From Candidatus Heimdallarchaeota archaeon (GTDB lineage: Archaea > Asgardarchaeota > Heimdallarchaeia > Heimdallarchaeales > Kariarchaeaceae), in contig WAKA01000222.1 of assembly GCA_015523565.1 (NCBI GenBank), positions 1 to 31,927 on the forward strand: a stretch of DNA of 31,927 bases. Reading direction: 5' to 3'. Position numbers and translations under genes: made by a program. The notes under the pieces were generated by a model that was given only the letters and a program-made list of their open reading frames with translations, was not told where the DNA came from and made no database searches. This document shows, one piece after another, positions 5,655-19,011 of this stretch (positions are counted from its first letter, which is position 1; each line of letters starts with the position of its first letter).

Positions 5655-6748
5655 TGTGGGCTCCATCCATCTGGTGGATAGCCTTCATTGATTATTCTTT
5701 CATAAATTGCGATCAACGTATCTGTGGTTTTACGGATATCATGTTGCTGAACGTCCTTGAACGCCTGTTCCACGAGTCTGTTTCGAGTCTTTTCATCCCT
5801 GAGCAATTTATCCATTGAAAAGACGAAACCTTGAATGTCTGCCGCCCTGAAACAATTAACATCATTGAACAGCCAGTCAAACACTTCAATGTCTCTTACC
5901 ACAATTGGTGTTTTTGTTGCCGCCGCTTCCAATGGTGGCAGTCCCTGCGTTTCCATGTGGGTTGTCACCAACAACAGGTCAATTGCAAAGAAGAATTCTT
6001 CAATATCTTCAACAAATCCCACAAGTTTCATATTTCCCGGAACCTTTCCCAAATATCTATTGAAAAAGAATCTGGGATAAATTGGCTGTGATTTGCCGAC
6101 CCAAATGAATTGATAATCTACTTTTTGTAATGCCACCTGCTTGAAATCTCTTGCCCCTTTTCTTGGGAAAAGGGATCCAATCCCTCCTATTAGGGGTTTG
6201 TCTGGATCAAAGCCATACTTAAGTGTGAATCTTTCTTTTGCCCTTTTTCTGTCTTCCAAAGATGGCACTTTGAACTGATCCATTGGAATGCCATTGCTGA
6301 CTGCTGTTGCTGGGGTTGTCACTCCTATTTCCCTTACACATTTTTTAGCAAACTCAGATACAGGCACCAAAAAAGGGGCAAGATTATAATAATATCTCAA
6401 ATATCTCCGCATGAATGGATCAATCAGTGAATATCCCAAAATTCCACCAACCATGTCCTGTGGAACAGAATGCACATGCACAACTGCTTTTGTCTTTTTC
6501 TTTGCTTTTTTCAGGAAGAATGAATTGAACCCGAAATGAATGTCAACAAGATCATATTGCTCAAGTGGTTTTTTGCCATTGTAGTCAACTTCCACACCTT
6601 TTTCCCTTAGGGTCTTCATTAGGCGTTTTGGAGCTAACTCAATCCCTCCAAGCTTTGCCTTCTTTCCTTCCTTTCCTGCACCAATAATATTGATTTTCAA
6701 CAATTCATCGTCTTGGCAGGGAATTAATAGGTAATGGTTTTGTTTCAT
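5651..6748 (-). CDS. GT4 glycosyltransferase, glycolipid-synthase (CpoA/Dgs)-like
   Basis: 'VHVHSVPQD...YYYNLA', 'VSNGI', 'RKG' and the GT4 EX7E motif 'ETQGLPPLEAAA'. The true start may lie ~15 codons downstream. Confidence 0.85.
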   Translation of the reverse strand: MKQNHYLLIPCQDDELLKINIIGAGKEGKKAKLGGIELAPKRLMKTLREKGVEVDYNGKKPLEQYDLVDIHFGFNSFFLKKAKKKTKAVVHVHSVPQDMVGGILGYSLIDPFMRRYLRYYYNLAPFLVPVSEFAKKCVREIGVTTPATAVSNGIPMDQFKVPSLEDRKRAKERFTLKYGFDPDKPLIGGIGSLFPRKGARDFKQVALQKVDYQFIWVGKSQPIYPRFFFNRYLGKVPGNMKLVGFVEDIEEFFFAIDLLLVTTHMETQGLPPLEAAATKTPIVVRDIEVFDWLFNDVNCFRAADIQGFVFSMDKLLRDEKTRNRLVEQAFKDVQQHDIRKTTDTLIAIYERIINEGYPPDGWSPH

Positions 6749-7680
6749 TCATTTTCCCAGAGTCCAAGGTTTACGAGATCTTCTTTCGGTTCCATAAAAC
6801 TACAAGAGCCAAAGGAATGAAATGTCTCTTTTCTTCCCTTTTCAATCTGCTGTAAATCGATAAATGCATCATTCCATCCAATTCGCTCTTCTTCAAAGAC
6901 AAAAGCCTCAATACTCTCTTCTTTCAATATTGCTTCTATATTGTCTACATGTGCGATGGATGCAAAAATGACATTGAGAAATCCATGCATGTAAGTTCCC
7001 AATTCTTCTGAATAATTCCTGAATGGATGATGGAGTCCTGCAGTGGCTTTGAACAGAATATCTGAATCCTTGCACTTACGGATGAACGTTGCCACGTCTT
7101 CAATGGATGGTATTTGCTGTGCCTCTGTTCCTCCCGTCCTTATTTTCATTCCAATTCCATGGATTTTTGATAATTCTTGGACAAGATTTTCAAGTGCCGC
7201 TTGCCAATCCTGTACAAAATGATTTTCAAGGAAAAGATTTGAAATTACATTTTGATCCTTGAATATATTTTTCACTTCACCAACGAATTCATTTGCGTTT
7301 TTTGTTTCATAAAATGAATGTGGGATCTTCACTTCTGCTATTGGGAAAGAAAAGTTCGCATCAGAGATCTTTTGTTCAAGCAAAATCAGATCCTCTTCTA
7401 GGTTCTCATAAAATGATTTCTCGTCATTTCCCCCTCTAAGAAGAATCGAAAGCTCGATTGGATTGTCAAACTCGTCAAAACGCAGATGATATGGCTCCAA
7501 TTCATCCAGCTTTCCAATTGGGATGACCAATTTTCCGATCATCCAATTGTCCTCACTTTCCATATATTCCAAATAATTGGAAACGGTCTGCCCCAAAGGA
7601 AGTTTCGCAGGGGGAAACAATCCTGCATAATCAAGCACATGGAGCAACAACTGTTTCAGTGATTTTTTCACAGACCTCAA
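6745..7680 (-). CDS. Conserved hypothetical protein (DYAGLFPPA / KATAGLHHP / SFGSCSF family)
   Basis: Motifs 'DYAGLFPPA', 'KIRTGG', 'FKATAGLHHP', 'HGFLN' and 'SFGSCSF' of an uncharacterised, mainly bacterial, enzyme-like family. Confidence 0.75.
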   Translation of the reverse strand: MRSVKKSLKQLLLHVLDYAGLFPPAKLPLGQTVSNYLEYMESEDNWMIGKLVIPIGKLDELEPYHLRFDEFDNPIELSILLRGGNDEKSFYENLEEDLILLEQKISDANFSFPIAEVKIPHSFYETKNANEFVGEVKNIFKDQNVISNLFLENHFVQDWQAALENLVQELSKIHGIGMKIRTGGTEAQQIPSIEDVATFIRKCKDSDILFKATAGLHHPFRNYSEELGTYMHGFLNVIFASIAHVDNIEAILKEESIEAFVFEEERIGWNDAFIDLQQIEKGRKETFHSFGSCSFMEPKEDLVNLGLWENE

Positions 7681-7743
7681 ATTATGGCTTTGTGTTTAAG
7701 TCTTTTGGGCAAACTTTGTATTCATTCAAAAAAATATAGCAAT

Positions 7744-8868
7744 TTAACTTGTTTCCTGATAGTTGATTGTATTTGACAGGATGACATCCTCTCTGACATT
7801 CACTGCCAAATTCCTGCCTTTTGGAACCTCAATGTATCCATTTTCATCAACCTTGACAGGCGGATCAATTATGTCTTGCGTAAAATATCTGTCTGATCCT
7901 GATGTGTCTCCTGGAATTGTAAATTCGTCTTTTGCTTGGATGAAAATGTTGTGCATCCTTCCAATACCCATTTCCAGCATTCCTCCAAGCCAAACCTTGT
8001 CCTTGCCCAATTTCTCGGCGATTTGCTTTGCTTTATGGTAACCACCAACTCTTGCAGGTTTAATATTGATGATTTTTGCACATTCATATTCTATTGCCTG
8101 AATTGCATGGCTGACTGTATGGATTGATTCATCAAGGCAAATGGGGGTCGAAATTTCCGCCTGCAGTTTTTTGTGATCCAGCATATCATCATATGCCAAA
8201 GGCTGTTCAATCATCATGAGATCAAATCTATCCATTCTCTTGAAAATGTCAATGTGTTCCTTTTTCAAAGAATAGGCGGAATTTGCATCTACCATCAGTT
8301 TAATGTCCCCATATTCCTTTCTAATCGCCTGAACAACGTCGAAATCCCATCCAGGTTTAATTTTAATTTTTATCCTCTGGTACCCTTTTTCCAAAAATTT
8401 GCCGATGCGTTCCAATAATGCATCAAGTGAAGGTTGAATTCCAATAGAAACTCCTGTCGGAATTTTTGTCTTGGTCGCGCCATACAATTCCCCTACACTT
8501 TTATTTTCACGTTGGGCCTTCAAGCTCCAATAAGCTGATTCAATCCCTGTTTTTGCAAAATTATGCCCCCTGATCGGTGCAAATGCCTTATCAATATCTT
8601 CAATCGTGGGAAACCCATTTTCAAAAAGCTTCAAGAATGCTGGGATGAGGTATTTTTCTTGAATAGTCCAAGTTGTATCCATTGTTTCATATGCATATCC
8701 TGGGAATGGGTCTGCAACAGTCTCTCCCCATCCAACATTTTCATCTGCATCAATGAGCTTGATAATGATTGCGAATTTCTTGTCTTGTACGCCAAAACTA
8801 GTCTGAAAGGGATGAACAAGTGGAAGGCTGATAAGTGACTGGGAGATCTTCACTGGTGTATTGTCCAT
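7744..8868 (-). CDS. menC: o-succinylbenzoate synthase / N-succinylamino acid racemase (NSAR/OSBS, enolase superfamily)
   Basis: 'PFQTSFG', KxK 'KIKIKPG', metal ligands 'DAN', 'EQP' and 'DES', second Lys in 'INIKP', 'PGDTSGSDRYF'. Confidence 0.9.
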   Translation of the reverse strand: MDNTPVKISQSLISLPLVHPFQTSFGVQDKKFAIIIKLIDADENVGWGETVADPFPGYAYETMDTTWTIQEKYLIPAFLKLFENGFPTIEDIDKAFAPIRGHNFAKTGIESAYWSLKAQRENKSVGELYGATKTKIPTGVSIGIQPSLDALLERIGKFLEKGYQRIKIKIKPGWDFDVVQAIRKEYGDIKLMVDANSAYSLKKEHIDIFKRMDRFDLMMIEQPLAYDDMLDHKKLQAEISTPICLDESIHTVSHAIQAIEYECAKIINIKPARVGGYHKAKQIAEKLGKDKVWLGGMLEMGIGRMHNIFIQAKDEFTIPGDTSGSDRYFTQDIIDPPVKVDENGYIEVPKGRNLAVNVREDVILSNTINYQETS

Positions 8869-10726: not shown

Positions 10727-11386
10727 ATGTATATTGAAATCCTGATTATTATTGCCGCCTATTTGTTAGGATCGATACCCACCTCATATTTAATTGCAAA
10801 ATACAAGTACGGATTTGATATTCGGGAAAAGGGTTCAGGTAACGTTGGTGGTGCAAATGCCGCCAGAACGATGGGCATGAAGGTTGGTGTGTTTGCAGGT
10901 CTTGTTGATGTCTTCAAAGGGACTTTGGCAGTTAACATTGCGATTTGGTACTCAAAAACTTATCCTGCAACGTCTGGTTTTTTTGAAGACCCTAATATTT
11001 TAGTTGCAATTGCTGGGTTTACGGCAGTCATTGGTCATTGTTACAGTTGGGTGCTTGGCTTCAAAGGTGGAAAAGGCGGTGCAACTACAGCAGGGGTTGT
11101 GCTTGGATTGGATCCAATGACGTTTTTATGGTTACTGTTGGTTTGGATTTTGGTAGTGGGTACCACACGTTTTACAAGTTTGGGAAATCTTATCGCAGTT
11201 TGGGTCATCCCATTAATGTTTCAAATACGCATAGAAAATCTTTATCAACGTGTTGGAAGTCTAGTTTCTTCCGATGCATATACTGTCATGGCATATTCAT
11301 TGATTGTCTTGATTTATTTCAAACATCGGGACAATGTCATGCGCTTACTACAAGGTACAGAACGGAAATTTGGTCAGAGGGAATGA
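10727..11386 (+). CDS. plsY: Acyl-phosphate:glycerol-3-phosphate acyltransferase
   Basis: 'LLGSIP', 'DIREKGSGNVGGAN', 'GHCY...FKGGKGGAT' and 'KHRDNVMRLLQGTE', i.e. all three PlsY motifs. Confidence 0.92.
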   Translation: MYIEILIIIAAYLLGSIPTSYLIAKYKYGFDIREKGSGNVGGANAARTMGMKVGVFAGLVDVFKGTLAVNIAIWYSKTYPATSGFFEDPNILVAIAGFTAVIGHCYSWVLGFKGGKGGATTAGVVLGLDPMTFLWLLLVWILVVGTTRFTSLGNLIAVWVIPLMFQIRIENLYQRVGSLVSSDAYTVMAYSLIVLIYFKHRDNVMRLLQGTERKFGQRE

Positions 11387-12555
11387 TTTAGTTCCGCTAA
11401 TTTTTCAATTGACTTTTCAAGCTGATGAACCCTTTTTAGATCCATCTCAACAGCTTCATCCTTTAAATCCAATTCTGACAGGATTTCCTCTTTTCTTGCA
11501 TCTCTTGCAATTTTAAATGCCTGTATCAATTTCGGAAAGACGGGCAAACCTGCGACTATTGCATTCAAAGAAGGTTCGACCACCCCAAATTCATTTTTGA
11601 GACTTTCATCAGTCTGGATGAATTTAAGAAATGGTGTATTCTCAAATGCCTGAACAAATCTAGGGGCTTCATAGCTGAAATCTATTGTTTCGTACGATTT
11701 CCTGATAATGGCACAGTATATTTTTCTGCTTTCCAAGATTTCCTCTCGAGTCATAGAGGTTTTTGCAACAATCTCATCCACCAATATGTCAACATATCTC
11801 AGATTAAGCATTTCTCCCTCTCCTGTTTTCTCAAATGGTACATGCACTAAAAATGAGATCCCTGGCGTGTGGAATGTTTCCTCTAAATCTTCTAGAGATG
11901 CATCGTATCTTTCCCTGTAAGCTGATTGCATGGTTGAAACCAGAAGATTTGTGAATCCCCTGTTAAGGTATTCTATTTTCTGTCTGGCCAATATTTCAAA
12001 TGGGAGTTCCATTTCATCCAAAGTGGGCATATTGTCTATCAATATCACATTATTGCCCAAAGGGTCATTGGAAAATACCACTTTATAAAGGAATTCTGCC
12101 ATATTATAATGAACCCTTGAATTCTCAAACCTTTCAGGAAATACAAGGACAATTGGTGGTGTCAGATTGTAGTTTTCCTTAAGGATTTTTGAGACTGTCA
12201 GGATACTGCTTATTCCTGTTCCTCCACTTCCTGTTATCAGTAACATCAATCCGGGTTTCTTTGGAATTATTTTCTGGAGGTGGGGAATTATATCTGATTT
12301 CCAATTGCTTACATTTTCTAGAGCGATATCTAAATTTCTGGCAAAACCTTCTTTTTCTTCTGTTACACTAAATGTAATGTCATAGATCGGATTTGTAAAG
12401 TGTTCCCTCTTCCCTGCATTCATGGCCAATCCTTTGACATTTTCAATCCCCCCCGCCTTTAGGGTTTCAATTAGTTTTGCTCCCATTGTCTGCCCTATAT
12501 CTCCAGCCGCAATGATAGAAATGCTTAGTTGTTTGTTGAATAGATTAAACTTCAT
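11374..12555 (-). CDS. Divergent tubulin/FtsZ-superfamily GTPase, paralog B
   Basis: T1 'IAAGDIGQTMG', T3 'GFARN', T4 'GSGGTG', T5 'FPERFE', T6 'ILIDN'. ATG at 12555 follows a GGTGA RBS that overlaps the upstream stop codon. Confidence 0.8.
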   Translation of the reverse strand: MKFNLFNKQLSISIIAAGDIGQTMGAKLIETLKAGGIENVKGLAMNAGKREHFTNPIYDITFSVTEEKEGFARNLDIALENVSNWKSDIIPHLQKIIPKKPGLMLLITGSGGTGISSILTVSKILKENYNLTPPIVLVFPERFENSRVHYNMAEFLYKVVFSNDPLGNNVILIDNMPTLDEMELPFEILARQKIEYLNRGFTNLLVSTMQSAYRERYDASLEDLEETFHTPGISFLVHVPFEKTGEGEMLNLRYVDILVDEIVAKTSMTREEILESRKIYCAIIRKSYETIDFSYEAPRFVQAFENTPFLKFIQTDESLKNEFGVVEPSLNAIVAGLPVFPKLIQAFKIARDARKEEILSELDLKDEAVEMDLKRVHQLEKSIEKLAELNHSL

Positions 12556-12559
12556 TGTA

Positions 12560-13954
12560 TCACCCAATTAACTTAATGATTGCAGGTATTCCCCTGAATG
12601 CATATGCGCTGAACAGCAGTGAGAAGTAAAGCAATCTAAAGGGGTTTACAGGGCTTGGTTTCATGCTATAGATAAATTCTCTAAGAATAAAAATTACCTG
12701 TATGTCAATTTCTGTTCTTCTTTCTCTTCCAAGCGCCAAATTTGTAATCTCGTCATAAATAAATGGATCAAGTTCACGAAGTGCCTTTGTCCTGAATCTT
12801 CCCATGACATTTGAGATGGAAATAATTGGCAAAAGGATTTGACTAAATGAAAGCATCAATGAAACTATTAGGGCTATAACCACAATATTCCTAATGATTG
12901 TACTTTTTGCCAATATTTCTGCATTTGAGGCAGAACTCAGGATAATTTGTTGCTCTTCTGGACTTAGTTGACTAAGTTGGGCAACATTTTTGTCTGTCAG
13001 CAGTCTGGTTAACGTTTCTTCATAGCTTGTCCGTCCAACCTGCTCCACAAACGTGATGAAGAGTGGAGAGGAAACCAAAAATACAAGTGAATTGATAATG
13101 ATTGTAGCCGCTAAAAGCCCATAGAGTGGGATGTTTCCCAAAGATTGAATGGAAAGTCCTGGTGTATCTGCCAATACCTTTACCACTTCATAATTGTTTT
13201 TGGAAAGTATGCTGTCATGACCTTCATTGTATCCTTCTGCCCGTTCCTTGATTTTCTTCAATAGCATGTCATAAAGCCTTGAATTCAATCGTACATAATT
13301 CAAGGCAAGTAAAGAGACATAAATGATGAGCCCTACACCAAAGTGACTAAATAGGAGGAAAATTCCTCTTATGGCGATTCCTGTTGTTGCAATATTATGG
13401 TCAACCCAAATTTTCACCAACTGATAGTCCATAAAAAAAGGAATAACCATTGAAATCCATAATGGCGTTCTTGGCCACTTTCGCAGGTAATATGCATTGA
13501 AGTCCTTCTCAATGGATTTTTCGAGCCATGGTGCCCTTTTTGCTTCAATAATCTCTGTAAATGTGTTATATCCATATTTCAAATAAAACGGTGCTGTAAT
13601 AATCCCTGTAATTGCCAAAATTGCAAAAAATATGGATATTCCCAAAGATTGAAGCAATATGCCTGCTTCAATAGAGAGAACCAAGCTGGGGATTGCCAAA
13701 ATGAGAGGGATGGAAAACAGCTTTTTGAATGCACTGGGATTGAGGAAAAGTACCACATTCATTGGAAGCTTGGATAAGATACGCGGAAGCTTGAAAAGAT
13801 TCCTGAAAGGTCGCTCAAGATACTTGATATATGTGAAATATTCTGAATCGACCCCTTCAGGTAAAGTTTCCTCGTATGTGTCAAGAAGTTCCTCAAATTC
13901 AAATACGATATCCTTGGCATGTCTTGGTCGCTCAGAAAGGAATCTCATCGTCAT
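12560..13954 (-). CDS. Multi-pass (~7 TM) membrane protein of unknown function
   Basis: 464 aa with ~7 hydrophobic segments; the start overlaps the upstream stop (TAATG) and follows a GGAGG RBS. Confidence 0.8.
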   Translation of the reverse strand: MTMRFLSERPRHAKDIVFEFEELLDTYEETLPEGVDSEYFTYIKYLERPFRNLFKLPRILSKLPMNVVLFLNPSAFKKLFSIPLILAIPSLVLSIEAGILLQSLGISIFFAILAITGIITAPFYLKYGYNTFTEIIEAKRAPWLEKSIEKDFNAYYLRKWPRTPLWISMVIPFFMDYQLVKIWVDHNIATTGIAIRGIFLLFSHFGVGLIIYVSLLALNYVRLNSRLYDMLLKKIKERAEGYNEGHDSILSKNNYEVVKVLADTPGLSIQSLGNIPLYGLLAATIIINSLVFLVSSPLFITFVEQVGRTSYEETLTRLLTDKNVAQLSQLSPEEQQIILSSASNAEILAKSTIIRNIVVIALIVSLMLSFSQILLPIISISNVMGRFRTKALRELDPFIYDEITNLALGRERRTEIDIQVIFILREFIYSMKPSPVNPFRLLYFSLLFSAYAFRGIPAIIKLIG

Positions 13955-15303
13955 TAGTGATCATCCTCCAACTCTCCTCTTCTCTTTAGTGTGGCTTCTC
14001 TTGCCAATTCTTCAGCAATCTCCTGTGGTGCCTTGACTTCAATCTCTTCCCCGTCTTTTAGCTTGTCGATTTTTGGATTGATTCTTCCTCCTTCATCTCT
14101 TTTCTTTTCTTCATTCAATAGGTACACCCTGACGTCTTCTGCATCTCGCATGAAATTCCTTAATTTTTCAGGAATAGGAATGCCTACAAAGACCCCTCGA
14201 AAATGTAGTCCTTCATTATCCATTACTTTGAATTCATGGAAGATATCTTTGTTGGAAAATGTATTGAAGAAGTCCCTGTAACTTTTGGAAGTAACCTTGT
14301 CCTTTGTTGCTTGGATAAAAATATAACCTCTTGTACAATTTCTGGGATTGACCTGATAGGACACACTTTCTTTAATGGACGCGTCAAATATTTCAGTTAA
14401 ATTTCCTTGACAGGTATCCGAGTCAAATTCTGCAATTATCCCGATTCCTTTGACGGTTCTGAATATTTCAAGAAACTCATTCAGGTCACTGGAATATCCG
14501 TCACTTTCCAGTTCTGTGGCAACCAACAAGTCTGCAATAGTTGCTCCGATCTTTTCGTTGACTGCCCCAAATATTTTATCAAACGGTTGCCCTTCATTTT
14601 CAACAAAAAACTCGTCATTGTCAACCAGCAAGGTCATCAATCCCTTTGACCTGCTTCCAGGGGCATATGTAAAATGGTAGAGTGCTGCCGCCGCGATAAA
14701 TTTTGTACGAGTGTTCTCATATCGTGCAGGAAGAACAAGAATTGGAACTGGTCGTTTTCCTTTAGAGATTAAATAATCAACAAGTTTAATGGCAATGCCA
14801 ACTCCTGTCCCCCCACTTCCCAATATGAGAAAAACAAGGTCATGTCTGGTTTTCTGTGGAAAATTCTCTAAATAGTTGTCAATAAAGCTTTCTATTTTGT
14901 CTTTTTCTTTCTCATATGTTTCTGATGCCTTACGATATTGCTTTGCTGTGCCATAGGTTGTAGTTCCTATATGCAACTTGAATTTGACATTTTGTTTCTC
15001 AAGATTGATTTTGTCTGTTTCAATTAGTGCAGTATCTAAACTGACCCCATATTTGTTGACACGGTTCACAATGTTCCCCAATATCCTTCCTCCCGCACCT
15101 CCAATACCAATAATTGGCACTTCAGGGGAATCAAATTTCTCTTTGATGCTTAAAATCGGAGTGGATCCAAGGACATTCTCGTCAACAATTACTGTCTCAG
15201 GAATCTCTTGGGATTTCTGCTTTTTGTCTGGCTTGTCTAAATTCAATTTCAGCATGCGATAATGTGCAACATATGGGTTTTTTGAACGCCATAACTTTAC
15301 CAT
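13954..15303 (-). CDS. Divergent tubulin/FtsZ-superfamily GTPase, paralog A
   Basis: T1 'IGIGGAGGRI', T2 'IETD', T3 'GTAK', T4 'LGSGGTGVG', T5 'LPARYE', T6 'LVDND', T7 'DGYSSDLNEF'; ~60-aa N-terminal extension and charged C-terminal tail. Confidence 0.87.
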   Translation of the reverse strand: MVKLWRSKNPYVAHYRMLKLNLDKPDKKQKSQEIPETVIVDENVLGSTPILSIKEKFDSPEVPIIGIGGAGGRILGNIVNRVNKYGVSLDTALIETDKINLEKQNVKFKLHIGTTTYGTAKQYRKASETYEKEKDKIESFIDNYLENFPQKTRHDLVFLILGSGGTGVGIAIKLVDYLISKGKRPVPILVLPARYENTRTKFIAAAALYHFTYAPGSRSKGLMTLLVDNDEFFVENEGQPFDKIFGAVNEKIGATIADLLVATELESDGYSSDLNEFLEIFRTVKGIGIIAEFDSDTCQGNLTEIFDASIKESVSYQVNPRNCTRGYIFIQATKDKVTSKSYRDFFNTFSNKDIFHEFKVMDNEGLHFRGVFVGIPIPEKLRNFMRDAEDVRVYLLNEEKKRDEGGRINPKIDKLKDGEEIEVKAPQEIAEELAREATLKRRGELEDDH

Positions 15304-15450: not shown

Positions 15451-16917
15451 ATGAAAGCAAAAGAACAGAACAAGGCTGGAATAATAGGAACTATTGGTCC
15501 CTCGTCTGCAAAAGAGCCTATTTTAGAGAAACTTTTTGAATGTGGGATGAATATTGTTCGAATTAACCTTTCCCATGGTGATCATAAAACGGCAAAAAAG
15601 ATGTTTGAACTTGTCAGGTCTGTAAATGACAATATTCCTATTATGTTTGATTTATCTGGTCCCAAAATGCGTATTGGAAAAATTGATGGGCATGTCCATC
15701 TGGAAGTTGGATCTGAATTTCGTATCACAAAAAAGGAAACTATTGGCGACGAAAACAAAGTAAGTACAAACTATCCAGAGCTTATCGATTTGGCTCAAAT
15801 AGGAAATACTATCTACCTTAACGATGGGTTAATTGAACTACAGGTAATTGATAAAACTCCTGATGAAATTGTCACGAGGGTCGTCAGGGGAGGTGCCTTA
15901 AGCTCTCGAAAGGGGATTAATGCCCCACAAGTTCCCATCGGACTGTACTCGCCCACAGAAAAGGATCTCCGTGACTTGGACTTTACCCTTCCATTGGAAC
16001 CTGACTTTTATTCTGTCTCATTTGTTAGAAGGAAAGAGGATCTCCAAAAAGTCAGGCAAATTATCGAAAGCCATACGTCTGATCCAATCCATCTGATAAG
16101 CAAGATTGAACATCTAGATGGTCTTAAAAACTTTGATGAGATTCTCAAGGAAAGCGATGAGGTCATGATTGCAAGAGGTGACCTTGGAGTAGAAATGGAT
16201 CCTGCAAAAGTTCCACTTGTGCAAAAAGACCTAATCAAAAGATGCAATCGATTTGGGAAACCTGCCATTGTTGCCACCCAAATGTTGGAAAGTATGGTAT
16301 ATTCTCCACGTGCAACCCGTGCAGAAGCATCCGACGTTGCCAATGCCATTCTTGATGGTGCTGATGTTGTCATGTTAAGTGCAGAAACTGCCACAGGGGA
16401 GTATCCCGTAAAGGCAGTTGAAACAATGGCTCATATCATTGAGACTGTTCAATCCTCCATTCCTCCTCATAGGGAAAAATACCATCCTACCGAAAATCCA
16501 AATTGGGATGCAGTTGGAAGGGCGGCAGTTTATCTTGCAGAAGATTTGGGCGCTTCTGCCATTATTGCAAACACAAGATCTGGCGATACAAGCCGGGTAA
16601 TTGCAAAATATAGACCTTTACAACCCATCATCTCAATAACGCCAAATCGAAAAACATTCCGTCGTCTTAATATCCAATGGGGTGTCATTCCTGTCTTTAG
16701 TAAAACAAATTACCATGATACTGATGATATGATTGAAGACTCCATTAAAATAGCTGTAGATCTTGATTTGATAGAGAAGGACGATATTGTTGTCACCGTG
16801 GCTGGCTCTTTATTGGGCATGCCCTATACAACCAACCTAATCCAATATTATTACGTCAAGGACATCGTCAAATCATTAGAGGCAAAGAAAAAATTTTCAA
16901 CTGCATATTTAGAATAA
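15451..16917 (+). CDS. pyk: Pyruvate kinase (probably K+-independent type)
   Basis: 'TIGPSS', 'RINLSHG', 'DLSGPKMRIG' (Lys at the position that marks K+-independent enzymes), 'SKIE', 'ARGDLG', 'ATQMLESM', 'MLSAETA'. Confidence 0.97.
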   Translation: MKAKEQNKAGIIGTIGPSSAKEPILEKLFECGMNIVRINLSHGDHKTAKKMFELVRSVNDNIPIMFDLSGPKMRIGKIDGHVHLEVGSEFRITKKETIGDENKVSTNYPELIDLAQIGNTIYLNDGLIELQVIDKTPDEIVTRVVRGGALSSRKGINAPQVPIGLYSPTEKDLRDLDFTLPLEPDFYSVSFVRRKEDLQKVRQIIESHTSDPIHLISKIEHLDGLKNFDEILKESDEVMIARGDLGVEMDPAKVPLVQKDLIKRCNRFGKPAIVATQMLESMVYSPRATRAEASDVANAILDGADVVMLSAETATGEYPVKAVETMAHIIETVQSSIPPHREKYHPTENPNWDAVGRAAVYLAEDLGASAIIANTRSGDTSRVIAKYRPLQPIISITPNRKTFRRLNIQWGVIPVFSKTNYHDTDDMIEDSIKIAVDLDLIEKDDIVVTVAGSLLGMPYTTNLIQYYYVKDIVKSLEAKKKFSTAYLE

Positions 16918-16995: not shown

Positions 16996-19011
16996 ATGAG
17001 CTTTGACAGAAGGGAATTATTTGGTGAATTAGCCAATAAAATCGGTGCAGAAGACATTACAGACCCATTTGAACTTCTCAAAAGAGGGGATGAGGAATCC
17101 CAAAAAGGAAATCATGGCAAGGCCAAGGAATTTTATGAAAAAGCAATAGCAACAGGCAAGGCAAAAGCAGAGCGTTTTGAAAGCAACAACCAGCATCGGT
17201 CTGCCGCAGAAATGAATTATGCGCGGGCTCTTGCCAATTTAAGACTAAATAAGACTGAAGCCGCCATGGCACTTTACTCAAAAATTGGAACACAATTGAT
17301 AGAAGGGGGGAAGAATTACATTGAATTGTACAAGGAGTATCAAGACGGGGTAATTTTGATTACATTGGGTGGACTGGTTTATGTCCTGCAGGATCGGGTT
17401 GAAGATGCCAAGAACCTGTACTTGACAATGATCAATGAAATTGAACAAAAAGGTCAAACAGGTGAAATTCAACAAGGTCTGGCCCAATTAAAGGAAACCC
17501 TCTGGACAGTTGGTTATATCATAAAGGCAATTCAAGATGTTGACCATAGTGCCCTCCAAAGTGCCCAACAATTAATTTCGAAGTCCATCAAACCAAACCT
17601 GAAAAAAGCAAAAGTTGCTGGAATGGAGCCATTATTGGACGAGGTGGTCAATTATACCCTGAATTACTTCCAAAGTCAAATTAAACTCCCACGGATTGTC
17701 ATTCGATCCACCATCCCCCCTGAAATGGTAGCAAATGAAATTTTTGAAATCAAATTTGATATTGAAAACAAAGGTGAAGGCGAAGCAAATTCCCTTGTCA
17801 TGGAAATGGAATTCCCCAACGACCTTGAACTGGTTGACGGATCACCCTCTGTTTCCTACGAAAAATTGGTCCCAAATCAACAATTAACCCAATCATATTC
17901 ATTGCGGTACCAAACAAGTATTGAAGAGGATCGCGAGTTTCAACTTCAAGGAAAACTATCCTACAAGGATATGCTCAATAATGAACAAGTTCAATTTATA
18001 GGTCCTATCCCACTGGAAATCAACGCGAAAAGCAAGAAAGATGAATTCACCTCCATATTGTCAGATAAACTTTCAAAATGGAACGAGATGAAAGAAAAGG
18101 GGTTCGCAGAATTAATCCCCTCTGAATTGGTTGATTCAATACAAACGTTGGTTGACAAGACCAAGTCACAGATTGAAACACTTATTGAAAACTCTCAATA
18201 CGAAAAAGCTGAAGCAATGTTCAGCACATTTGATACAATTCTCGAGTGGGTTGAAGAAAGCATAAGGGAAGGTGTTGTTGCCAAAAGACTACTAGATGCA
18301 ATCAAGAAAGGACAAGAGGCTTATGCCGAGGAAAAAGTAAGGGAAGCAGAAGAAAAACACAATCAAGAAATGGAAAAAACCATTGAACGGATAAATTCAA
18401 TGAAGGAAGAAGAAAAACAAGAGGCTCTTACAAAACAGGAAGCTGAACTAGAACGAAAATGGAAACAAGAAATTGAAAATCTAAAAGCTGAGCACCAACA
18501 AGAACTTGACAACCTCAAGGGCGAACATGAAAAACAACTTAAAATGAAATTAATTGAACTTGAAGAGGCACTGAATGAGAAACATCGAAAAGAAATTGAT
18601 GAAATCAATGAGAAAAATGAGAAAGGCATCAGAGAAATCCAACAAGAATACCAAAACGAATTGGAAACAAAAGTAGAGGAAGCAAAGCAACAAATAGAAG
18701 AAAAGTATGAGAAACAAATCAAAGAGCTGAAACAGAGTTTCGAAGAAGAAAAAAGACAGCTCATTGAACGCATGACAGAAGAAAAAGAAAATGAAATTCA
18801 AAGTTTAACTGCAAAATTTGAAGTGGAAAAAGAAAAATTGAAACAGGACTTGCGAAATGAATTTGAAGAAGAAAAGGAACAGGCAATCAATAAGGCATTG
18901 GAAGAAGCTTCAGAAAGCCAAGCCCGTGCATTCAAAGTAAAAGAAAATGAATATAAGGAAAAAATCGCCGAACTTGAACGAAGAGTGGCAAGATTAGAAA
19001 GCGGTGAATAA
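16996..19011 (+). CDS. TPR/SNAP-like solenoid + Ig-like domain + long C-terminal coiled coil protein
   Basis: Helical repeats in the first ~230 aa ('KAKEFYEKAI'), Ig-like segment 'FEIKFDIENKGEGEA...LSYKD', then an E/K/Q-rich heptad coiled coil of ~230 aa. Confidence 0.75.
   Translation: MSFDRRELFGELANKIGAEDITDPFELLKRGDEESQKGNHGKAKEFYEKAIATGKAKAERFESNNQHRSAAEMNYARALANLRLNKTEAAMALYSKIGTQLIEGGKNYIELYKEYQDGVILITLGGLVYVLQDRVEDAKNLYLTMINEIEQKGQTGEIQQGLAQLKETLWTVGYIIKAIQDVDHSALQSAQQLISKSIKPNLKKAKVAGMEPLLDEVVNYTLNYFQSQIKLPRIVIRSTIPPEMVANEIFEIKFDIENKGEGEANSLVMEMEFPNDLELVDGSPSVSYEKLVPNQQLTQSYSLRYQTSIEEDREFQLQGKLSYKDMLNNEQVQFIGPIPLEINAKSKKDEFTSILSDKLSKWNEMKEKGFAELIPSELVDSIQTLVDKTKSQIETLIENSQYEKAEAMFSTFDTILEWVEESIREGVVAKRLLDAIKKGQEAYAEEKVREAEEKHNQEMEKTIERINSMKEEEKQEALTKQEAELERKWKQEIENLKAEHQQELDNLKGEHEKQLKMKLIELEEALNEKHRKEIDEINEKNEKGIREIQQEYQNELETKVEEAKQQIEEKYEKQIKELKQSFEEEKRQLIERMTEEKENEIQSLTAKFEVEKEKLKQDLRNEFEEEKEQAINKALEEASESQARAFKVKENEYKEKIAELERRVARLESGE

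Follow-up and report, generated by a model that had tools for sequence, protein, structure and literature searches.

The 31,927-nucleotide contig WAKA01000222.1 from a Candidatus Heimdallarchaeota archaeon (assembly GCA_015523565.1), which is referred to here in its entirety as the window, contains three minus-strand genes at positions 11374-15303 that we call A, T and B. A and B encode divergent members of the tubulin/FtsZ superfamily, and T, which lies between them, encodes a polytopic membrane protein. This A-T-B cluster is a real system that is restricted to one order and has apparently not been described before. Database matches place the window in the Heimdall-group Asgard archaea (Kariarchaeaceae, Heimdallarchaeota LC_2). 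The genes are closely packed: the stop codon of A (13954-15303; 449 amino acids) overlaps the start codon of T (12560-13954; 464 amino acids) in the sequence TAATG, and only 4 nt separate the T stop codon from the ATG of B (11374-12555; 393 amino acids from this ATG). The ATG, at M5 of the listed reading frame, is probably the start of B, and the listed TTG at 12567, four codons earlier, is probably not used; B orthologs start with MKFNLF or MRFRLF. T has about six to seven hydrophobic segments in all, located at approximately residues 75-126, 192-223, 274-304 and 345-384. It matches no Pfam or NCBIfam family, and its matches in a protein-atlas search were unnamed clusters only. Orthologs were sought in a scan of 400 Asgard genomes, in which the families of the window's order are designated f1 (the window's own family), f3 and f4.

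A and B are genuinely paralogous, and each has the complete two-domain tubulin/FtsZ fold, composed of a Rossmann-type GTPase domain, the core helix H7 and a C-terminal domain. The two sequences align by BLASTP with an E-value of 9e-10, and hhalign matches their profiles over 336 columns with 99.8% probability and an E-value of 1.2e-28. The AlphaFold2 models of A (predicted local distance difference test score [pLDDT] 74, predicted template modeling score [pTM] 0.75) and B (pLDDT 78, pTM 0.80) match TubZ, CetZ and FtsZ in Foldseek with a probability of 1.00 over 330-400 columns; the E-values are 7e-18 to 1e-13 for A against all three and 2e-16 for B against TubZ and FtsZ. At the sequence level, A is a low-scoring but clear member of the superfamily, with 32.5 bits against PF00091 by hmmscan and 34.8 bits in a six-frame genome scan (cut-off 33), and its 36.6 bits against the NCBIfam ftsZ model TIGR00065 are far under the cut-off of 295. 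B reaches only 13.9 bits against PF00091 (hmmscan, E 0.066) and does not match TIGR00065. When PDB was searched with profiles, the best match of A was CetZ2 (4b45, E 3.9e-9) and the best match of B was TubZ (4ei7, E 6e-10), which was reached by profile only, as a single-sequence PDB search with B returned nothing at E≤10. The same genome also carries a canonical FtsZ at a separate locus (contig C53:10141-10617, locus L011; 164 bits to PF00091), and a scan of this 90% complete genome detected one FtsZ in addition to A and B, with no second FtsZ and no true tubulin.

Outside the folded domains, A orthologs begin with a short hydrophobic or basic N-terminus (MVKLW.., MAKLSFLSFLKR..) followed by approximately 45 disordered residues, and end with a conserved charged C-terminal tail (NPKIDKL .. 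EEI[ED]VK .. RRGE). In the window, these tails correspond to residues 1-45 (15169-15303, minus strand) and 406-449 (13954-14088, minus strand). Both terminal peptides are candidate membrane-targeting or partner-binding elements.

The loops that form the nucleotide pocket and activate hydrolysis can be located in both proteins (all on the minus strand, with translations checked). A carries the canonical set. Its T1 loop, GIGGAGG (15088-15108), has the G-x-G-G-x-G pattern, which almost every A ortholog of f1 and the public loci retains, its T4 signature is GSGGTGVG (14797-14820), in which G164, G165, T166, G167 and G169 are invariant across 16 orthologs, and its T7 loop and the start of helix H8 read DGYSSDLNEF (14473-14502). 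In B, the corresponding segments are AAGDIGQ for T1 (12490-12510), GSGGTG for T4 (12214-12231; GSGGTGIS with the two following residues) and YDASLEDL for T7 and the start of H8 (11884-11907). Compared to the superfamily T4 signature GGGTG[ST]G, A and B are close variants with the core G-G-T-G in both. The original prediction, made from the window's sequence, had quoted the T1 and T7 peptides of both proteins, and each translates at exactly these coordinates.

The original prediction had also assigned DGYSSDLNEF and YDASLEDL to T7, and this assignment holds in both structural models, where the segments follow H7 and occupy the first turn of H8 (H7, loop and H8 at 241-262, 263-273 and 274-279 in A and at 186-209, 210-220 and 221-228 in B). 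Sequence alignments agree. MAFFT aligns N-V-D-F-A-D of the genome's own FtsZ with S-S-D-L-N-E of A and D-A-S-L-E-D of B, the profiles of A and B, when aligned by hhalign, fall into the identical T7 register, and the PDB profile alignments place V-D-T-S-E of CetZ2 and F-D-A-S-E of TubZ at this position. Measured against the superfamily T7 motif N-x-D-x-x-[DE] (PMC12583498), A has both acids, with Ser in place of Asn, and B has only the last acid in register. D273 and E276 of A correspond to D209 and D212 of FtsZ and to D251 and E254 of tubulin; all A orthologs share N275 and E276, and at least 90% of them share D273. In B, the first Asp is replaced by Ser and an Asp, D223 when numbered from the ATG, is kept at the second, catalytic position. 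A HMMER alignment gap against F-D-A-S-E-F of TubZ raised the possibility that the Asp of Y-D-A in B is the first T7 Asp displaced by a two-residue insertion. This idea was rejected because B sequences of family f3, which align to the window's B without gaps, read N-A-D-L-N-D, equivalent to N-x-D-x-x-D of FtsZ in the MAFFT register. The proposed likeness of A's T7 to alpha-tubulin is real with respect to D-L-N-E-F, but D-x-x-E is also found in CetZ2 and TubZ.

The original prediction had described B as having a degenerate T1 and a T7 lacking its first Asp. The conservation of these loops across orthologs does not bear out a decayed B. G18, D19, G21 and G25 of the T1 pattern G-D-x-G-x-x-x-G are invariant across 7 orthologs, and the G-D pair, at unchanged Gly spacing, is present in 14/14 B proteins of f1 and the public loci for which data exist. 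The T1 Asp sits at the position of the second Gly of FtsZ, which is the Gln position of CetZ2 (G-V-G-Q-A-G-G), and a polar residue is common here in CetZ-like proteins (G-Q in 11 further divergent representatives, G-N in P0057 and G-D in P0063). The T1 of tubulin, G-Q-C-G-N-Q, has the same Gly spacing as that of B. The T4 of B follows the family pattern G-x-G-[GA]-T-G, which is decayed in locus L003 and in family f4, and B also keeps the T3 motif G-F-A-R-N (aligned to G-A-A-R-N of TubZ), F-E-N-S-R and D-N. Given the T1 Gly pattern and these T3, T4, F-E-N-S-R and D-N motifs, the pocket of B looks competent.

The two loops do differ, as the original prediction stated, and B does lack the first T7 Asp. 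What that account omitted is the catalytic Asp, which is present in 41/43 non-redundant B sequences across the order. The Ser at the first position is not a general feature of B: in a set of 15 sequences drawn from f1 and the public loci, this position is Asn in five, Ser in three, Gly in three, Glu in two, Asp in one and Thr in one, and Asp is the residue in P0022 (64% identical) and P0023 (58% identical), both close orthologs. In alpha/beta-tubulin, the catalytic E254 is in the T7 of alpha, beta has K254, and one of the interfaces never hydrolyzes (PMC13394414). Because B is acidic at the catalytic T7 position, a division of this type is not supported, and neither is a filament in this genome whose interfaces alternate between active and inactive, given the near-invariant Asp and the competent appearance of the pocket. 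The specific alpha/beta-like reading is unlikely for this genome; judging from its motifs, B is here a probable specialized nucleotide-binding subunit with a catalytic Asp rather than a dead partner.

The cluster is nearly universal in the window's order and almost absent elsewhere. The B profile matched 45/400 Asgard genomes, including 11/11 in f1, 30/31 in f3 and 2/3 in f4, and all matches lie in this order except one 4-kb contig of another family; at E<1e-30, it retrieved just 11 cluster representatives among 1.84 billion proteins. The A profile matched 44/47 genomes of the order, although in f3 these matches land on the B gene; the true f3 A copies are more divergent and were identified in 8 fetched loci. 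The A-T-B order is present in 9/9 public loci with enough flanking sequence, at A identities of 34-60%. A and B are always encoded near each other, and wherever the flanks are long enough, T is the gene immediately upstream of B. The layout differs in f3, where the A gene has moved beyond the pyruvate kinase gene and onto the opposite strand. In a quick maximum-likelihood tree, one branch splits A from B (Shimodaira-Hasegawa-like approximate likelihood ratio test 95), and f1, f3 and f4 are found on both sides, suggesting that the duplication predates the order. The only A-T-B cluster outside the order, L004, is on a 4055-bp contig of Hodarchaeota YT2_004 (G061:C52) and has approximately 45% identity to the window's A. 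In its host family, f5, the cluster is found in 1/22 genomes, and it may reflect mis-binning or recent transfer.

A comparison among the families revealed that the asymmetry between A and B is not fixed. In f1 and the public loci, A has a canonical T1 and T4 and both T7 acids (D..E), whereas B has the G-D-x-G form of T1, a mostly intact T4 and only the catalytic T7 acid (x..D). In f3 the situation is reversed: A has lost T1 (F-x-G/E-x-x-G) and T4 (N-[DN]-x-F-x-L-G) and has D..D or D..N in T7, whereas B has a textbook T4 (G-S-G-G-G-T-G-S-A) and often an exact FtsZ-type T7 (N-A-D-L-N-D). A third arrangement is seen in f4, where A has T1 of the form G-x-G-Q-A-G in 2/3 and T7 of the form A..E or G..E, and the T4 of B is destroyed (S-S-D-G-F-S or S-S-G-T-F-S). 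Among orthologs, the asymmetry seen in the window is conserved within the window's family only. The GTPase motifs decay in opposite directions across the order, with a dead A pocket and canonical B in f3 and a dead B pocket in f4, so that one partner tends toward a pseudo-GTPase and which one differs by family. Such reciprocal decay is compatible with joint action of two proteins of which only one must be a competent GTPase, and it fits fixed alpha-like and beta-like roles poorly.

Structure prediction suggests a possible direct interaction. A complex modeled from A residues 56-405 and B residues 1-365, with their alignments, obtained an interaction prediction score from aligned errors (ipSAE) of 0.66 (0.54, 0.66 and 0.72 in the individual runs), compared to 0.00 for the highest-scoring of three controls. 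The ipSAE mark used is reached by 58/80 solved complexes and 2/110 mismatched pairs, a calibration that holds only roughly for alignments of our own, as used here. At least 83% of contacts were in agreement among the runs, with a partner pLDDT of at least 80. The interface is formed on the A side by T7/H8 (268-279) and loops of the C-terminal domain (334-360), and on the B side by the nucleotide face, namely D19 of T1, residues 48-50, T3 (66-74), T5 (141-149), residues 181-190 and the C-terminal helix. D19 of B contacts the T7 of A in the model. As modeled, the contact of A on B appears to be the canonical longitudinal one, with the complete T7 of A facing the altered pocket of B. The original interpretation draws support from paralogy, gene proximity, this modeled contact and the inequality of the two copies across the order; a heteromeric A/B system is probable, without the alpha/beta pattern in this genome.

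The explanation that we favor, to which we assign roughly an even chance, is that A and B form a hetero-assembly with T in which both copies keep catalytic capacity, and that across the order one competent GTPase subunit is enough. A and B are ancient paralogs of a lineage limited to one Heimdall-group order and closest to CetZ, TubZ and FtsZ rather than to tubulin, and under this hypothesis they would cooperate with T, the product of the gene that separates theirs, as a membrane-associated assembly. Both copies in the window most likely bind guanine nucleotide, which for B is suggested by its motifs, and each keeps a catalytic acid in T7. They probably join head-to-tail by the standard longitudinal contact, and the contact modeled most confidently inserts the T7 of A (D273, E276) into the B pocket that bears the T1 Asp. 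The Asp-bearing T1 would modify this site without killing it; we speculate that it tunes the handling of Mg2+ or nucleotide. The T7 of B lacks only the auxiliary first Asp and the asymmetry is real but mild here, and order-wide the loss of GTPase motifs in one partner, different in each family, would be tolerated.

An alternative closer to the original prediction is a strictly alternating A/B heterofilament with one hydrolyzing and one non-hydrolyzing interface, in which A acts as alpha and the T7 of B is non-activating. Such a filament would account for the complete D-x-x-E of A and the missing first Asp of B, and the modeled complex is the canonical longitudinal heterodimer that it calls for. 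Substitutions of D209 in FtsZ and D251 in alpha-tubulin impair GTPase activity, and by analogy the loss of the first Asp could weaken the T7 of B. We nevertheless consider this alternative improbable, since B has Asp at the catalytic position where beta-tubulin has Lys (PMC13394414), its first-Asp position is unconstrained, with D or E in some close orthologs, the polarity is reversed in f3, and neither A nor B is nearer to tubulin than to CetZ, TubZ or FtsZ. Somewhat less improbable, but still unlikely in our judgment, is that only one paralog is a polymerizing GTPase and the other a non-polymerizing cap, nucleator or adaptor to T; in the window, A would be the filament and B the adaptor. The universal adjacency of T and B, in contrast to an A gene that can relocate, fits this arrangement well, as do the f4 B copies that lack T4 and still lie beside T and the f3 A copies that lack T1 and T4. 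Each family has at least one paralog with both the pocket and the catalytic acid, and a single longitudinal contact is also what a cap would form. A pure adaptor, however, would not be expected to require the pocket motifs and catalytic Asp that f1 B keeps nearly in full under purifying selection, and the roles would have to swap in f3, making B the GTPase.

A and B could also each form a homopolymer with a role of its own, in which case the proximity of their genes would be a remnant of an old tandem duplication and conserved synteny. Separate action has been reported for archaeal FtsZ1 and FtsZ2 and for multiple CetZ paralogs (PMC12583498), which provides a precedent, and the synteny of the pyruvate kinase, PlsY and RidA genes is likewise kept, suggesting that a stable gene order is a general property of the genomes of this order. 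This alternative seems to us quite unlikely: the genes overlap or are 4 nt apart, their order is held even at 34-45% identity, the modeled complex supports binding between A and B, and, given the reciprocal loss of motifs, one of two independent polymers would be non-functional in f3 and in f4.

Several points weigh against the hetero-assembly that we favor. The complex score, obtained for the A-B pairing only, may derive from solved FtsZ, TubZ and tubulin filaments that the prediction model has learned, in which case any two such folds could reach it. Nucleotide binding by B is argued from motifs, and its acidic T1 side chain could instead repel phosphates. The intact paralog of f3 and that of f4 each have a pocket as well as a catalytic acid, which is equally compatible with a homopolymer of this paralog that has the other as an accessory, and the location of the f3 A gene away from T-B loosens the operon argument. 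The tree, obtained by quick searching, has a long FtsZ branch, and its root is unreliable. We consider unlikely a more far-reaching version of the hetero-assembly, in which A and B would be an independent, obligate heteromeric polymer of the tubulin superfamily that is coupled to T and has one turning-over site per A-B unit, with the partner drifting to a pseudo-GTPase (A in f3, B in f4 and an early stage in the window). Reciprocal pseudo-GTPase evolution would be the more interesting result, and f3 and f4 provide the informative contrasts.

The genes surrounding the cluster are housekeeping genes, namely pyruvate kinase, PlsY and RidA. The pyruvate kinase gene (15451-16917, plus strand; Pfam PK, E 2.5e-108) is kept as a neighbor across the order: it is divergent from A in the window, adjoins A in L001-L003 and is the immediate neighbor of A in every family. 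For example, in the f3 locus L074, pyruvate kinase is at 6592-8031 (minus strand), and the relocated A-like gene is directly downstream on the same strand. The proximity of pyruvate kinase and A may reflect a functional link, such as local regeneration of nucleoside triphosphates, or only synteny. On the other side, a gene for a PlsY-type glycerol-3-phosphate acyltransferase (10727-11386, plus strand; Pfam G3P_acyltransf, E 5e-47) converges on B from downstream and overlaps its end by 13 nt; this neighbor is also found in Heimdall LC_2 (L001). Beyond pyruvate kinase, positions 16996-19011 (plus strand) encode a 671-amino-acid protein that has no Pfam match and whose C-terminal half is a long charged coiled coil, and L001-L003 encode a protein of 660-707 amino acids at the equivalent position next to pyruvate kinase. 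Searches of the window for Rfam families and tRNAs returned no matches.

We found no paper that names the A and B proteins or describes the A-T-B cluster. The LC_2 orthologs OLS29073 and OLS29071 are automatically annotated as "CetZ" and are absent from the supplements of PMC9871819 and from every paper searched. "Asg.Tub" (Santana-Molina et al. 2023, PMC9871819) was considered as a possible prior description and rejected; its C-terminal alignment begins with LC_3 OLS26264, whose sequence, in the portion visible, is unlike A and B, and on that portion Asg.Tub appears to be a different protein.

Among known systems, CetZ, which functions in archaeal cell shape (PDB 4b45, 4b46 and 3zid), resembles A in several respects. 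CetZ 4b45 is its best PDB profile match, with an alignment that extends from T1 to past T7, the Foldseek TM-score is 0.81 when normalized to the target, D-x-x-E is common to both T7 loops, and the CetZ-type T1 G-x-G-Q-A-G is found in f4 A copies. At the same time, identity is only approximately 15-18%, with approximately 18% in the CetZ2 profile match, A is under the Pfam Tubulin cut-off by hmmscan, and the window's A has Gly at the Gln position, so that neither a clear sequence match nor the T1 G-x-G-Q-A-G-G expected of a CetZ was found. CetZ also differs from an A/B pair that surrounds a membrane protein and is found in one Asgard order only. TubZ, which functions in plasmid and phage partition (PDB 4ei7, 2xka and 3v3t), is the top Foldseek match of both A (E 7e-18) and B (E 2e-16). 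The profile alignment of B to TubZ spans T3 to the C-terminal helix, and the likeness includes T3 G-x-A-R-N, T7 F-D-A and a long C-terminal helix. In contrast to TubZ, the A-T-B cluster is chromosomal and order-wide with no sign of a plasmid or phage, although no search aimed at TubR or tubC was made; it comprises two paralogs and a membrane protein, and the T7 of B is two residues longer. FtsZ shares the fold, the G-x-G-G-x-G of A's T1, P-x-x-x-E-x-x-R after S5 of A and, in f3 B, an exact N-x-D-x-x-D in T7. A is nonetheless far from FtsZ by the NCBIfam model, its T3 is without G-A-G, and the genome has a separate canonical FtsZ.

The paired tubulins, namely alpha/beta-tubulin, AtubA/B and BtubA/B, resemble A and B in that two paralogs are encoded together and have unequal GTPase loops, and the modeled longitudinal heterodimer, with the D-x-x-E T7 of one subunit in the pocket of the other, resembles alpha/beta-tubulin. 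The differences are that B is acidic where beta has K254 (PMC13394414), that a membrane protein gene lies between the pair, and that the asymmetry flips by family. In addition, no tubulin was found among the best 50 Foldseek matches of A or B or among the PDB profile matches at E≤0.01, all of which are TubZ, CetZ or FtsZ. The characterized Asgard tubulins AtubA/B are true tubulins found in approximately 1% of genomes (PMC13394414); in contrast to this rarity, the A-T-B cluster is nearly universal in one Heimdall-group order. If the repeated emergence of a pseudo-GTPase partner is true, it would constitute a natural experiment on how duplication of an FtsZ/CetZ-like gene can yield separate catalytic and structural subunits. 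No prokaryotes are closer to eukaryotes than the Heimdall-group Asgard archaea. An obligate A/B heteropolymer, if true, would mean that the alpha/beta principle was reached a second time, by convergence, in the archaea most closely related to eukaryotes.

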